Shown here piece by piece: positions 21,001-23,640 of a stretch of DNA of 64,000 nt. Position numbers and translations under genes: made by a program. This DNA comes from Kiritimatiellia bacterium. GTDB taxonomy: Bacteria > Verrucomicrobiota > Kiritimatiellia > RFP12 > UBA1067. Positions within the stretch are counted from its first letter, which is position 1; each line of letters begins with the position of its first letter. The notes under the pieces were generated by a model. The model searched no databases. It saw nothing but the letters and a program-made list of their open reading frames with translations, and was not told the origin of the DNA. The DNA lies in the NCBI GenBank assembly GCA_045132115.1, contig JBGURT010000028.1, positions 2,293 to 66,292 of the forward strand, written 5' to 3'.

Positions 21001-23640
21001 TTCAGGGTCTACAAGTTCTATCGGTACATTTGCCACATCTCCCCACATTAAGCTACCGGTATTGCCGTTCATTTTTATGAACGACTGCGAATTTCCAAGG
21101 TTGTCAACCGTTATATGATTGTCCGCACCCGTAACAACCACGGTGCCACGCCACTTGCTAGAATTCTGAAGATCAGCTTTAGTTAGGTAATTAACCGCTG
21201 AGTAATTGATAACCGACGAAAGAGTTACTCCGCTGTCAATAGTTACATTCGCCGAAGGCTTGAGTTCGCCAATCGAAGCTACCTCGCTGTTAACAGTAAA
21301 AGGAGTTTCGTTGGCTAAACTTTCAATTGACACTTTATACCCATCACTCCACATGTCCTCAAACTTGAAAGTACCAGAACCAATCACTACAACCTTGTTC
21401 AATGAAATATTGCTATCAATATAAACCTTCGTGTTTCCGCTATGATTAAACACTACATATTTATCTTCTTCGATCGGTACACGCTTCTTTGACCAACACG
21501 ATACGTCAGAATACATACCATAGACAGAAGCTGTCCAAACATTGGCAGCAGCCTCGCTTATATATGATCCACCCGAAGTGCTATATGCAACCTCTTCGCC
21601 ATCCTCGTTCTCGAATCTGAGCGTTGCGTTGCCGTTAAGAGTAATCGTGCTTGCCGTGTAGCCCAACGATTCCTGCTCTTCAGTCAAAACGAGAACTATC
21701 GTCGCGCCATCTTGCGCAACGACATCTCCTTCCGTTCCCGCCGCGAAGGTACGCGTTACCCCGCCCGGCACATTCTCCGGCACTCCGGAAGCGACGAGGC
21801 GAAGTTCCAAATCTTTGTAGGTCGTCTCGCCAGTGGAGTTGGTCGCCTTGAGCGTAAGGATCATGCGCTGACCAGCCCACTTGGAAGCAACTTCGGTAGC
21901 GTCGATATTGATAGAGAAGCTGCCGTTGCCGTTGTCCACAACCTCGACCGTCTCCTGCGACAATACGCTTTGGTGGCTCGGGAACGCCTCAAGCGTCGCA
22001 ACATTCTGGCACGCAACATCAATGATATTCCAACCCATCGCAATGTCGGTATAGAAGCCTTCCTGGATGAGGTCTGTTCCGCGCGGCGACATCGTAACCG
22101 TACCGATCACCGGCGATGCGGCAGGTGTGCCGATTGTTGTTGTCGCGGTCTGCGTAATCGCCGCAGAACCATCACTCATGATGGGAGCGACTGTAAAGGC
22201 ATAAACCTCATCTTGTTCTAGGCCGGTAAAAGTCTTTGTTTGCACAGCAACATCGTTGATAGTCTCTGGCTCTCCAACCGTCTCAAAGGTCTTCACGTTA
22301 GAGATGGAAATGTAATCCAGACTCAATTTGGCTTTTGAATCCACATAATTGCCGCCATTTGTATATTCAGCCGCAACTCGAATCTGCATTATTTTGCCAG
22401 CATAATCGGACAAGGGAATCTCGACATTGAAATTCTGCCCCCATGTTTGATTGTAACTGCTAAGCTCAAATTTGTGGATTGTTTGCCATGCGCTGTCACC
22501 AACCTTAGCTTCGATTCTAGCCTCTATGCCTGCCATAAACGCACTGCTCAAATTATAAGACAAAACAGAATCCGCTGTGATTGCCAACTTGTCGTCGAAA
22601 GTGTAAATGGCAGAGACCGTTCCGTTCCAGGCACTCAAGAAACCATCTTCAACTCTCATTACGTTATTGTTGGAAGATCGTCCCTTGCCCCCATCATTGA
22701 AATTATCTTCCCATGTAGTTGTCCCCGCGCTCAACTTCTTCTTGGCAACCGTAAAGCCATCAATCTTGTTCGTGTAACAGTTGGGAAGATGCCAATTGAG
22801 CGTGACATTATTTCCGCTTATCGGGGCAATGGGTTCTATCTGCACCGACTTGATCGGGCGAAAGCCCACATGAACATTGTCTAAAGGGCTAGGGATACCA
22901 GACCCATAAGACTCTGTCGATCTAAGGTTATACCATCCGTCCGATCCGCCACCCCAACCGTAATTGAGCCAGATAAAATCTGCCGCCTCACCAACGCTAT
23001 TCGTTCCCGTGGCATAGCCAAGTCCAACCACCGCGTGATGAGGAACGCCGACTTGCACCGGCGAGCCAAATTCCAAGTCCGCACGAATGGCCGCCACCGC
23101 ATCATCATCGCCACCATTGGCATTAGGCTTGACCGTCCCTACATACTCAAACCATTCCATTGTGCCGGGTATTTGCTTCATGGCCTCGGCGCCTCCAGAA
23201 ACATATTGCATCTGCAAGAGCGACTGGCACATCAACGACAGACGCGCCGCTTCATGCTTCTGTTTTAGCGTAGCTCCGCTACCATATGAGGTGAGAAGAG
23301 AATCCCAATCGATTGGCACAGAGCCATCAAAGCGGATAACGCTATCGCTCTCGCCATTTACTTTATGCGAAGCGGTGTGAATCGCCTCAAGTCTCCAAGG
23401 CCACCGCCAAACCAGCAGTTCCTGCGATGAAGAAATTGCCTCGCAACCAGACAGCCAACTGCTGTGTGGTGTATACTGATTATACGGCTCTCCTTGAACC
23501 CAGTGCGCTTGCGTCAACGGGTGCACGACAATATTCGTGACCTCATCCGCAAACGCTCCGCCGGCTACAGCCGAAACCATCGCCACGACAGCAGAAAATC
23601 GAAAAATCGAAAAATCGAAAAATCGAAAAATCCTTTTCAT
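18085..23640 (-). CDS. giant secreted protein paralog: C10 peptidase-like domain + FN3-like + LamG-like + PATR repeats, C-terminal FY motif
   Basis: 1851 aa; signal peptide encoded partly by (GAAAAATC)n; C10 motifs (Cys in SGCEAISSSQ, His in VPHHAVVGLGY); ends GGACKFYRVRVGARRSDIE. Confidence 0.8.
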   Translation of the reverse strand: MKRIFRFFDFSIFRFSAVVAMVSAVAGGAFADEVTNIVVHPLTQAHWVQGEPYNQYTPHSSWLSGCEAISSSQELLVWRWPWRLEAIHTASHKVNGESDSVIRFDGSVPIDWDSLLTSYGSGATLKQKHEAARLSLMCQSLLQMQYVSGGAEAMKQIPGTMEWFEYVGTVKPNANGGDDDAVAAIRADLEFGSPVQVGVPHHAVVGLGYATGTNSVGEAADFIWLNYGWGGGSDGWYNLRSTESYGSGIPSPLDNVHVGFRPIKSVQIEPIAPISGNNVTLNWHLPNCYTNKIDGFTVAKKKLSAGTTTWEDNFNDGGKGRSSNNNVMRVEDGFLSAWNGTVSAIYTFDDKLAITADSVLSYNLSSAFMAGIEARIEAKVGDSAWQTIHKFELSSYNQTWGQNFNVEIPLSDYAGKIMQIRVAAEYTNGGNYVDSKAKLSLDYISISNVKTFETVGEPETINDVAVQTKTFTGLEQDEVYAFTVAPIMSDGSAAITQTATTTIGTPAASPVIGTVTMSPRGTDLIQEGFYTDIAMGWNIIDVACQNVATLEAFPSHQSVLSQETVEVVDNGNGSFSINIDATEVASKWAGQRMILTLKATNSTGETTYKDLELRLVASGVPENVPGGVTRTFAAGTEGDVVAQDGATIVLVLTEEQESLGYTASTITLNGNATLRFENEDGEEVAYSTSGGSYISEAAANVWTASVYGMYSDVSCWSKKRVPIEEDKYVVFNHSGNTKVYIDSNISLNKVVVIGSGTFKFEDMWSDGYKVSIESLANETPFTVNSEVASIGELKPSANVTIDSGVTLSSVINYSAVNYLTKADLQNSSKWRGTVVVTGADNHITVDNLGNSQSFIKMNGNTGSLMWGDVANVPIELVDPEGGVAFNWNNGYGSRTNFVDKIFGSGTLKVSGTGTYKTEKVVLRNIGEFTGSMDLSSKTLVIGNAVPETTTDNGRLYICSDYDAIISSGKTWKIGGGMYLGGNQTITVSGTLNGAITAEGTGTTLALKPTSAVTAASLVFTNNTISIEKSASAAAVVTVSGEVNLAGSTIAVTLSDEATDSIALMSADSFTGVDSATLTGLEGYELQVEDGILYAKSLNAGYSGPQPTTTWVSWAFEDYASDHGGYSITLNNNTINSDGNIVIGSGAIKGVTIELPSGTYTNASLLVKCKTPQGGAPMANAAIAGVLDSDNNPMAPICTTAGDNSFIGGYLNKNNGDVVTSGYYSYGFSTPPPTLPENKEAYMLFAFEATTGKGTALYLGEDIASLAGGNAGYLNWPNRKINVMAIGGSTQSNSNFGAWTDLEIEAVALFVDKWLTPGDIAGYEFPEPEEPVRTDVHYKSGFWGEGGENPFVVVLDNDKPTTVLEGETVIIDDKSSGVDTIYFGATLPENANKIRVARNVIFSSGENNPSMLDGATITVDDGVTLTFKRQWNNIVLGDVTIDGPGAVKFDHNDGTITIGGALSGTAAVTVETGKQISVAADGAIANTIAGDGTVAYASMPSVPMPLAASWTGTVELPQFTANGQMLTDYCNNNSKLKLNGINGGCLHWTSFTLNAELILAGDFVLTDMSERNFAFTKISGSGNISLSPKTYDLTSFTIGELAEGFAGAVTNNMNATKIVITDLMLPANTPVTPGSKVLAIGGSQDEGVKVTNVKVGGVLQNVQLERRNKGEDGDGLYVKAQIETEGEGENEVVTVVTEPEQESVEVPVANDFTGTIVVAPTVKFIDAGTAPVSAEQVKVKYGGNDITGAFTVSADLSLALDENGKVNDVDVKPAIDEGSSIDEGQLTVKAIPGLWYGVKYGDALEGGDIGGTSGNTTPKQATDFGDKELFAPKGGACKFYRVRVGARRSDIE

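Follow-up and report, generated by a model that had tools for sequence, protein, structure and literature searches.

The 5' end of giant-2, a gene for a predicted secreted C10 cysteine peptidase, carries a perfect octanucleotide tandem repeat of 4.75 copies inside the region that encodes its signal peptide. The preferred reading, held tentatively, is that this tract is a young expansion in the giant-2 leader that serves as a low-rate, opa-like translational phase switch operated by slippage.

The repeat tract and its host gene

Giant-2 lies in a 64-kb window, meaning here the whole stretch of DNA that was analysed. The features that define the locus, all read on the minus strand, are as follows.

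18085..23640, minus strand: giant-2, an ORF of 1851 aa with a signal peptide, a Peptidase_C10 domain and then a long repeat/beta-rich region
23638..23640, minus strand: giant-2 ATG start codon, with the first full repeat unit 8 nt downstream (ORF list and translation)
23595..23632, minus strand: perfect octanucleotide repeat of 4.75 copies, coding strand (GATTTTTC)x4 + GATTTT (Tandem Repeats Finder, sequence and chance controls)
23548..23640, minus strand: predicted Sec-type signal peptide of 31 aa, MKRIFRFFDFSIFRFSAVVAMVSAVAGGAFA with DE following the cleavage site (translation; site placed by the AXA rule)

Tandem Repeats Finder reports a perfect period-8 tract at positions 23595-23632 of the window, with 4.8 copies, 100% matches and a score of 76. 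On the plus strand the tract reads aaaatc and then four copies of gaaaaatc. The minus strand gives ATGAAAAG (GATTTTTC)x4 GATTTT CTGCT, which translates as MKRIFRFFDFSIFRFSAVVAMVSAVAGGAFADE, and the tract occupies nucleotides 9-46 (codons 3-16) of the 1851-aa coding sequence. The original prediction had described an octamer tract of about 4.75 copies directly after the giant-2 ATG, and both the repeat finder and the minus-strand reading agree with it in sequence and translation.

The octamer tract is far above chance expectation. With up to two mismatches allowed, a 16-mer of two units has four matches where 0.17 would be expected, and the tract has a period-8 match run of 30, whereas in 100 Markov-1 simulations the longest run of period 4 to 9 averaged 9.5 and never exceeded 13. 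When the window was scanned for perfect repeats with units of 2-9 nt, at least three copies and at least 14 nt in total, the only other repeat was (CGG)4.67 at 54-67. No second non-triplet perfect tract of at least three copies is present within the 64-kb window, hence there is no sign of a multi-locus 'phasome' there; further tracts of this kind at gene starts, a prospect raised with the original prediction, did not appear in it.

That the copy number, or the repeat itself, was made by assembly or sequencing is hardly credible. The source is apparently a metagenome-assembled contig, but a 38-nt tract with unique flanks is far below read size, the frame stays open through 1851 codons with a conserved domain, and perfect 8-mer arrays are not created by errors of such kind.

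The Peptidase_C10 domain of giant-2 spans residues 47-237 (window 22930-23502) and covers the full Pfam model (PF01640, E 3.5e-21, 76.8 bits against a cut-off of 26). Within it, the cysteine of the G-C-x-A motif (C66) is invariant in an alignment with homologues (A1), and the translation also shows a His-containing PHHAVVGLGY motif; the two may, by analogy, supply the putative catalytic Cys and His. The full-model match is the likeness of giant-2 to the Peptidase C10 family, represented by streptopain SpeB, interpain and Bacteroides Bfp. Unlike that family, giant-2 is 1851 aa long with a huge C-terminal extension, which is typical of Kiritimatiellae homologues. The Inhibitor_I69 prodomain is absent from giant-2 and present in its neighbour giant-1. 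Among 42 homologues at 28-66% identity, one is named by its source as a C10 family peptidase (Kiritimatiellae), and the relatives of giant-2 appear on sequence grounds to be Kiritimatiellae-like.

The M-K-R n-region of giant-2 agrees with the homologue N-termini MTRK.., MHRR.., MKK.. and MRK.., and no other in-frame giant-2 start yields a charged n-region. A start downstream of the tract (GTG/ATG at codons 19-21) was considered and rejected, as the leader would then be without a charged n-region, unlike all homologues. Since the K/R n-regions of the homologues validate the giant-2 start codon, the tract falls within the stretch that codes for the signal peptide, where the original prediction had placed it. 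The repeat-encoded residues FFDFSIFR lengthen the n-region and leave the hydrophobic core AVVAMVSAVAGGAFA and the A-F-A cleavage motif unaffected. In alignment A1 the giant-2 leader is 5-8 residues longer than in nine homologues, and the insertion falls in the leader. Taken with the Peptidase_C10 domain, the signal peptide predicts a secreted product, that is, one that would face the environment or a host.

Copy number, reading frame and the downstream genes

Among alleles with n = 0-9 units constructed in silico, the frame stays open only at n = 1, 4 and 7, which encode proteins of 1843, 1851 and 1859 aa. Their leaders measure 23, 31 and 39 aa and their mature proteins are identical. In the out-of-frame alleles (n = 0, 2, 3, 5, 6, 8 and 9) translation ends after 21, 19, 29, 27, 37, 35 and 45 codons, respectively. 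A single- or double-unit change shifts the frame because the unit is 8 nt, and the series confirms the earlier expectation that gain or loss of one unit would frameshift giant-2. The in-frame state of giant-2 has a one-in-three likelihood by chance, and a stable allele would look alike. The reading frame used at n = 2 and n = 5 can be extended upstream to a GTG that lies 165 nt away within the preceding AMP-binding gene; this extension was discarded as a mechanical ORF without a nearby start or ribosome-binding site.

If the tract acts as a switch, the present allele would be 'ON', that is, in frame and with eight residues added to the Sec leader of a secreted C10 cysteine peptidase. Slipped-strand mispairing by plus or minus one or two units would then cause a frameshift and a stop after 19-37 codons, abolishing the secreted protein ('OFF'). 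A further slip would restore the frame, so that the tract would behave as a reversible frameshift hot-spot of the Neisseria opa type. Even three to five copies of a short repeat produce a local mutational hot-spot, as the CTGG x3 site of lacI illustrates. With under five copies the tract would probably switch slowly, much faster than point mutation occurs but more slowly than classical contingency loci do; appreciable present-day slippage, with OFF variants in the population, would be expected. According to a passage in PMC3777172, several groups have correlated VNTR mutation rate with repeat copy number.

The reach of such a switch would depend on the surrounding genes, which are listed here from upstream to downstream.

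23674..25320, minus strand: upstream gene, an AMP-binding (acyl-CoA ligase-like) enzyme of 548 aa (Pfam PF00501, E 1.1e-78)
23671..23699, minus strand: candidate weak sigma-70-like promoter, TTTACA-17-TAGCAT, 9/12, overlapping the stop codon of the AMP-binding gene
23641..23673, minus strand: spacer of 33 nt from the AMP-binding gene stop to the giant-2 ATG, with a purine-rich Shine-Dalgarno-like CCCAGGAAAGGAACGGAAAC (sequence)
16900..18081, minus strand: ORF of 393 aa that starts 3 nt past the giant-2 stop (TAA GTC ATG)
11243..16903, minus strand: giant-1, a paralogue of 1886 aa with Inhibitor_I69 and Peptidase_C10, its ATG overlapping the stop of the 393-aa ORF (ATGA)
11197..11215, minus strand: terminator-like hairpin and T-run just downstream of giant-1 (consensus match only)

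The spacer upstream of giant-2 contains a TACCCAGGA motif that is common to the giant-2 and giant-1 leaders (alignment A2). The scanned region has 23 sigma-70-like matches of the kind listed above, where shuffled sequence would give 11.6, and their specificity is therefore low. At the other end of the cluster, the hairpin downstream of giant-1 is possibly the end of the transcription unit. Judging from the tight gene spacing, the genes downstream may be expressed less when giant-2 is OFF. The first of these, the 393-aa ORF, had been labelled 'HUH-DprA', an identity that was abandoned: it has no Pfam match and nothing for DprA, and its one hit is a weak match to a REP-associated tyrosine transposase-like (RAYT-like) family (NCBIfam NF047646, E 1.2e-7), which at 31.7 bits is under the curated cut-off of 80.

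Origin of the tract

Sequence comparison shows the tract to be lineage-specific and of recent origin, a young slippage expansion by three units. The expansion is taken to be recent because the homologues and giant-1 are without the repeat, the n = 1 form is canonical and an unrelated gene, L032, shares the 1.75-unit start. The original prediction had proposed a comparison with orthologous loci in related strains; the repeat was found neither in about 40 giant-2 homologues nor in the in-cluster paralogue giant-1, whose signal peptide is MRKYSRFLLALFSAIGMAIYCAAS. With n = 1, giant-2 would have a canonical signal peptide of 23 aa, as long as the one in giant-1. L032 opens with 22 nt identical to the 1.75-unit form, encoding MKRIFRFS. 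Such a proto-repeat, GATTTTTCGATTTT (R-I-F-R-F-S, 1.75 units), may have stood in the n-region of giant-2 and grown by three units to 4.75. By the geometry of slippage, a 1.75-unit template misaligns by one unit only, which implies that the lineage went out of frame at least once during the expansion before the frame was regained.

A search for other alleles covered both proteins and metagenomes. The only database protein more than 66% identical to giant-2 in the homologue search is the identical sequence, with one member, from one NCBI contig of 70,961 nt. Exact-protein look-ups of giant-2, its AMP-binding neighbour and the 393-aa ORF returned no record. Scanning metagenomes with the 26-nt downstream flank yielded no match, and a metagenome scan with the ATG plus 1.75 units recovered no allele of the giant-2 locus and one unrelated gene, the L032 already described.

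A serious, if less probable, alternative to an active switch is that a past burst of slippage left 24 nt (8 aa) in a tolerant leader, and that this in-frame insertion is now effectively stable, non-regulatory and bound to decay by point mutation. The low copy number and the presence of a single such tract in 64 kb agree with this account, as does the tolerance of n-regions for length variation; n-region lengths do vary among the homologues. Against it, an uninterrupted perfect tract must be either very young or actively homogenised. Growth from 1.75 to 4.75 units would also need repeated slippage via out-of-frame states, which suggests that the sequence slips.

Selection for a property other than switching offers a second alternative and a quite improbable one. 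Here the AT-rich insertion would have been fixed as a tuning element, either for better initiation on a less structured mRNA or for altered targeting via a longer n-region. AT-rich 5' coding ends favour translation initiation, and the tract has a G+C content of 25% directly after the start codon in a region of 50-60%. However, the predicted folding energy of the mRNA from -30 to +50 is almost independent of copy number (-17.8 kcal/mol at n = 1, -16.2 at n = 4 and -15.5 at n = 7), and with this the idea of an 'unstructured mRNA leader' was given up. Around the ATG, bases have the same mean unpaired probability, 0.36, at n = 1 and n = 4, and a perfect non-triplet tandem repeat would be a needless and risky route to eight residues.

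Known repeat systems and the same octamer elsewhere

Returning to the proposal that the giant-2 tract switches, its closest parallel is Neisseria opa ((CTCTT/CTTCT)n). Each has a non-triplet repeat at the 5' end of a gene for a surface or secreted protein, within the part that encodes the signal peptide; adding or removing units switches the frame, and in-frame alleles vary in leader length alone. The two differ in that the unit is a pentamer in opa and the octamer GATTTTTC in giant-2, and in that opa is a multi-copy family in a host-restricted pathogen whereas here one predicted switch is described, at a lone locus in the genome of an uncultured Kiritimatiellae-like bacterium. The giant-2 tract is thus best regarded as a predicted analogue of opa and not as a member, given that its host gene encodes a C10 peptidase without Opa homology and that it has no CTCTT pentamer. 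The contingency-locus architecture that had been claimed for the tract is retained in its opa-like layout, in its placement in a gene for a secreted C10 giant, a type of product that is usually under contingency-locus control, and in a copy number that passes the phasome-survey cut-off of at least three copies for units of 5-9 nt (PMC5953494). It falls short in that 4.75 copies lie below the numbers of proven loci, the phase-variable opa alleles having 7-21 copies (PMC5953494).

Octanucleotide tracts are also found in Haemophilus influenzae, where they include ATTATTTG (1-6 copies) and GCATCATC (12-15 copies upstream of hmw). Those tracts are intergenic or in promoters, while that of giant-2 is inside a coding region. 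The H. influenzae tracts of 1-6 copies vary between strains (PMC2651432), and the authors of that study considered such a tract a poor fit to classical phase variation ('not what would be expected'). Similarly, opa alleles with 1-4 units have been classed as non-phase-variable (PMC5953494). These literature doubts about short tracts favor the stable insertion described above. Bacterial VNTR/MLVA loci, such as the VNTRs of E. coli O157, resemble the proposed mechanism in that whole units are gained or lost by slipped-strand mispairing; they are mostly neutral markers without a switching role.

A scan of a genome collection for three units of the octamer identified 31 loci, mostly in Bacteroidales MAGs and none from the source lineage. 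Tracts fell within -150..+100 nt of gene starts in 13 of 33 cases, compared with 15% for random positions (p = 7e-4). This association is mostly lost against random intergenic positions (27%) and was not counted as support. As a separate observation, both reading directions of the octamer encode leader-compatible peptides, F-rich one way and K/R-rich the other way.

Two further findings bear on whether short tracts of this octamer slip, and they point in opposite directions. In L023, from a Puniceicoccales MAG, the same octamer tract lies 14 nt past the ATG of a prepilin-like (N_methyl) gene. As assembled, this ATG and the ORF are in different frames, and losing one unit or gaining two would restore a 291-aa protein. 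L023 therefore has the appearance of an allele of this octamer that has slipped; this fits slippage at tracts of such length and speaks against a frozen tract at giant-2. On the other side, L018 and L030, from two different Bacteroidales species, have an identical tract in a signal peptide with 3.5 copies in both, and a tract unchanged between species is consistent with stability.

A broader possibility, speculative and rather unlikely, is that short (GATTTTTC)n tracts or their complement (GAAAAATC)n at the 5' ends of secreted or surface genes form an unrecognised class of contingency switch in gut and anoxic commensals of the PVC group and the Bacteroidota. If such a class exists, the giant-2 locus would be the first phase-variable gene described in Kiritimatiellota. 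A giant C10 protease would be toggled, the second giant protease downstream would be toggled too by polarity, and the out-of-frame prepilin-like gene at L023 would represent the 'OFF' state of such a switch.

The slippage mechanism has been known since the 1980s, and the conceptual gain is modest in either case. Should the tract not switch, it would be a commonplace indel left by slippage in a leader peptide that tolerates such changes. If it does switch, an uncultured and poorly known Kiritimatiellae-like lineage would have stochastic ON/OFF control of a giant secreted cysteine protease, and possibly of the whole cluster. Contingency-locus biology would then reach past the classical host-restricted pathogens, and the repeat number would provide a simple marker for sub-populations in metagenomes.

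The repeat tract at the giant-2 start

Giant-2, the ORF of a secreted C10 peptidase, carries a perfect octanucleotide repeat just 3' of its start codon. The features concerned are as follows:

23640, minus strand: ATG of giant-2 (ORF end 18085, 1851 aa)
23595-23632, minus (coding) strand: repeat tract, CDS nucleotides 9-46 of giant-2
giant-2 residues 47-237, minus strand: full-length Peptidase_C10 domain (E 3.5e-21)

Read directly, the plus strand at 23595-23632 is aaaatc and then gaaaaatc four times over. The minus strand of the region runs ATGAAAAG-(GATTTTTC)x4-GATTTT-CTGCTGTC..., and the giant-2 start including the tract is translated as MKRIFRFFDFSIFRFSAVVAMVSAVAGGAFADE; strand reading and translation thus agree exactly with the repeat and encoded peptide of the original prediction. 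Tandem Repeats Finder describes the tract as period 8, 4.8 copies and 100% matches with a score of 76, the highest among the perfect arrays of the window. The tract is not a chance feature: its period-8 run comprises 30 consecutive matches; when the window was simulated 100 times with a Markov-1 model, the longest run of period 4..9 averaged 9.5 and never exceeded 13. Of two-unit matches, the window has 4 where 0.17 are expected. Apart from the tract, the 64 kb contain one perfect repeat with three or more copies and a length of 14 nt or more, (CGG)4.67 at 54-67.

Imperfect arrays are also present. The heptamer arrays GTTCCCC x4 (45649-45690, also readable as a 21-nt unit x2, inside the minus-strand ORF 45121-46128) and CTGTTCC x4.3 (54763-54792, inside the minus-strand ORF 54269-54982) have 82-90% matches and, read as 21-mers, keep the frame at least in part. 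At 8571-8624, there are 2.5 copies, 87% identical, of the 22-nt unit GATTTCATACGCATGAAACGAC, which has an internal palindrome (TTTCAT..ATGAAA). This array lies close to the ends of the mechanical ORFs 7944-8510 and 8619-9575 (both minus strand) and might have an operator or terminator role.

The homologues of giant-2 number 42, share 28-66% identity with it and are 1.4-3.2 thousand residues long; one bears the source name 'C10 family peptidase [Kiritimatiellae bacterium]'; above 66% identity, only the identical sequence was found, from one NCBI contig of 70,961 nt. In every homologue, the N-terminus opens with a short n-region containing K/R, continues with a hydrophobic core and an AxA-like site, and leads into a conserved T-N-V-V-V-x-P-L motif, as in the leaders MTRKIVSFLFALVVATGAYLAHA (followed by D) and MKKSVIFATVVVGLFASVAKA (followed by E). 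When aligned with them, giant-2 has the same layout except for 5-8 additional residues between M-K-R and the hydrophobic core. Downstream GTG/ATG starts at codons 19-21 were rejected since the charged n-region would be lost, which makes the ATG at 23640 the credible start; with the homologue alignment, it follows that the tract encodes part of the giant-2 leader. The leader of the paralogue giant-1 is an ordinary one of 23-24 aa (MRKYSRFLLALFSAIGMAIYCAAS) without a repeat, and a Shine-Dalgarno-like motif, TACCCAGGA, lies upstream of the ATG in both genes. Giant-1 has an Inhibitor_I69 (Spi-like) prodomain before its C10 domain; giant-2 has no such prodomain.

Reading frames and origin of the repeat

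Giant-2 was rebuilt in silico with n = 0-9 full units. The frame is open solely at n = 1 (1843 aa), n = 4 (1851 aa) and n = 7 (1859 aa), and at every other n a stop is reached after 19-45 codons, confirming that a one-unit change frameshifts the 1851-aa ORF. An assembly artefact as the source of the repeat is very unlikely, as the tract spans 38 nt, has unique flanks and sits within an intact 1851-codon frame. A further explanation, that the tract is a tuning element, an AT-rich insert favored by selection for a less structured mRNA around the start, is not supported: the predicted energies for -30..+50 are -17.8, -16.2 and -15.5 kcal/mol at n = 1, 4 and 7, and predicted ATG accessibility is equal at n = 1 and n = 4.

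At n = 1, the leader would be MKRIFRFSAVVAMVSAVAGGAFA followed by DE, a canonical leader of 23 aa and thus as long as the paralogue and homologue leaders. A metagenome scan with the ATG plus 1.75 units had as its sole match the unrelated L032 (metagenome contig Ga0180435_10463894), where a 251-aa ORF at 201-956 on the plus strand has a signal-peptide-like N-terminus. The first 22 nt of this ORF (ATGAAAAGGATTTTTCGATTTT, encoding MKRIFRFS) are identical to the giant-2 start at n = 1, showing that a 'proto-repeat' of 1.75 units is nothing unusual for a leader. Most simply, the tract grew from 1.75 to 4.75 units within the lineage of giant-2. Since a 1.75-unit template misaligns by one unit only, slippage geometry implies that this lineage carried one or more out-of-frame alleles until the frame was restored. 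Such a passage would indicate both that slippage occurs in this sequence and that a temporary lack of the protein, at least, is tolerated.

The octamer in other genomes

A three-unit scan of approximately 185,000 species genomes yielded 33 tracts in 31 loci, mostly from gut and rumen Bacteroidales MAGs, with 73% of the tracts outside long ORFs. Although 13 of the 33 fall within -150..+100 nt of a long-ORF start, compared with 15% of random positions (p = 7e-4), this association is mostly explained by the tracts being intergenic, as random intergenic positions already reach 27%. Several tracts are embedded in degenerate NNNTCGAT 8-mer arrays. In Bacteroidales and Prevotellaceae MAGs (L002, L008, L017, L021, L022, L025, L026 and L031), long intergenic arrays of degenerate 8-nt units with a TCGA core (e.g. 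GATGTTTC, GATATTTC, GATTCTTC, GGATTCGAT) often lie beside gene starts and contain perfect GATTTTTC runs. These arrays match no repeat class known to us.

A few loci have 5' coding tracts similar to that of the window. Two Bacteroidales species MAGs share an identical (TCGATTTT)3.5 tract, with 3.5 copies in both (L018, 3572-3599; L030, 3079-3106), inside the signal peptide (MKNIVISGKSDLIKRSIFRFFDFS..LLFLLLLTLPAFA, followed by Q) of an fn3 protein of 513 aa that bears a T9SS CHU_C sorting domain. The others are:

L020: 5' coding tract, rhamnogalacturonan lyase
L014: 5' coding tract, Omp85 protein
L013: 5' coding tract, NRPS

The most telling case is L023 (Puniceicoccales MAG JAISXO010000036.1), in which 4.25 copies of the same octamer occupy 5627-5660 on the plus strand, from 14 nt after an ATG. 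As assembled, this ATG is out of frame with a downstream ORF of 278 codons (~4791-5627, minus strand) that has a prepilin N-methylation motif (N_methyl) but lacks its own start; with one unit fewer or two more, the ATG and the ORF come into one frame and encode a 291-aa protein. The locus could be an OFF-phase (out-of-frame) allele, a pseudogene or an assembly error.

Downstream genes and a possible switch

The surroundings of giant-2 bear on the proposal in the original prediction that downstream genes are affected through coupling:

23674-25320, minus strand: AMP-binding enzyme, upstream of giant-2, 33 nt from its ATG
23699-23671, minus strand: weak sigma-70-like match, TTTACA-17-TAGCAT (consensus match only)
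16900-18081, minus strand: 393-aa ORF, starting 3 nt after the giant-2 stop (TAA GTC ATG)
11243-16903, minus strand: giant-1, Inhibitor_I69 plus Peptidase_C10, its ATG overlapping the 393-aa ORF stop
11215-11197, minus strand: terminator-like hairpin after giant-1 (consensus match only)

The 393-aa ORF had been labelled 'HUH-DprA', which is at best half supported: residues 75-172 resemble REP-associated tyrosine (HUH/Y1) transposases only below the threshold (E 1.2e-7; 31.7 bits, where the cut-off is 80), and no Pfam domain was matched. The packing of giant-2, the 393-aa ORF and giant-1, with a 3-nt gap and then a 4-nt overlap, agrees with co-transcription and translational coupling. With an OFF allele, the ribosomes would come off the mRNA ~5.4 kb ahead of the next start, and loss of coupling together with Rho-type polarity on the downstream genes may be conjectured. 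Giant-1 has a strong AGGAGG site of its own, 9 nt ahead of its ATG. The giant peptidase genes (12-24 kb) are G+C-poor (0.50-0.55), as is 34001-44000 (0.43-0.50 versus 0.58-0.62 in flanking housekeeping regions); these stretches may be horizontally acquired or surface-structure gene islands.

As analyzed here, the anatomy of the tract is exactly that of an opa-like translational switch. Counted in favor of switching are the perfection of the tract, its passing of the phasome-survey cut-off (three or more copies where the unit is 5-9 nt; PMC5953494), the differences among H. influenzae strains in octanucleotide tracts of 1-6 copies (PMC2651432) and a gene class that fits. However, the tract is short: Neisseria opa alleles of 1-4 units count as non-variable and those that are proven have 7-21 (PMC5953494), compared with 4.75 copies in giant-2. 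Also counted against switching are the doubts of the H. influenzae authors over a short octamer tract (PMC2651432), the correlation of VNTR mutation rates with the number of copies that other authors have stressed (PMC3777172), and the lack of a second candidate tract within the 64-kb window. Exact look-ups of giant-2 and both neighbors matched no contig, the metagenome collection gave no hit to the downstream flank, and the species-representative genome collection held no copy with at least three units from the giant-2 lineage. A frozen in-frame indel, functionally silent and in a tract no longer changing at a meaningful rate, is ranked as the serious rival; somewhat doubtful in itself, it is nearly as likely as the reading tentatively preferred here, in which a young, slippage-generated repeat would serve as a hot-spot of reversible frameshifting, at a low rate, in the gene of a giant secreted C10 protease.
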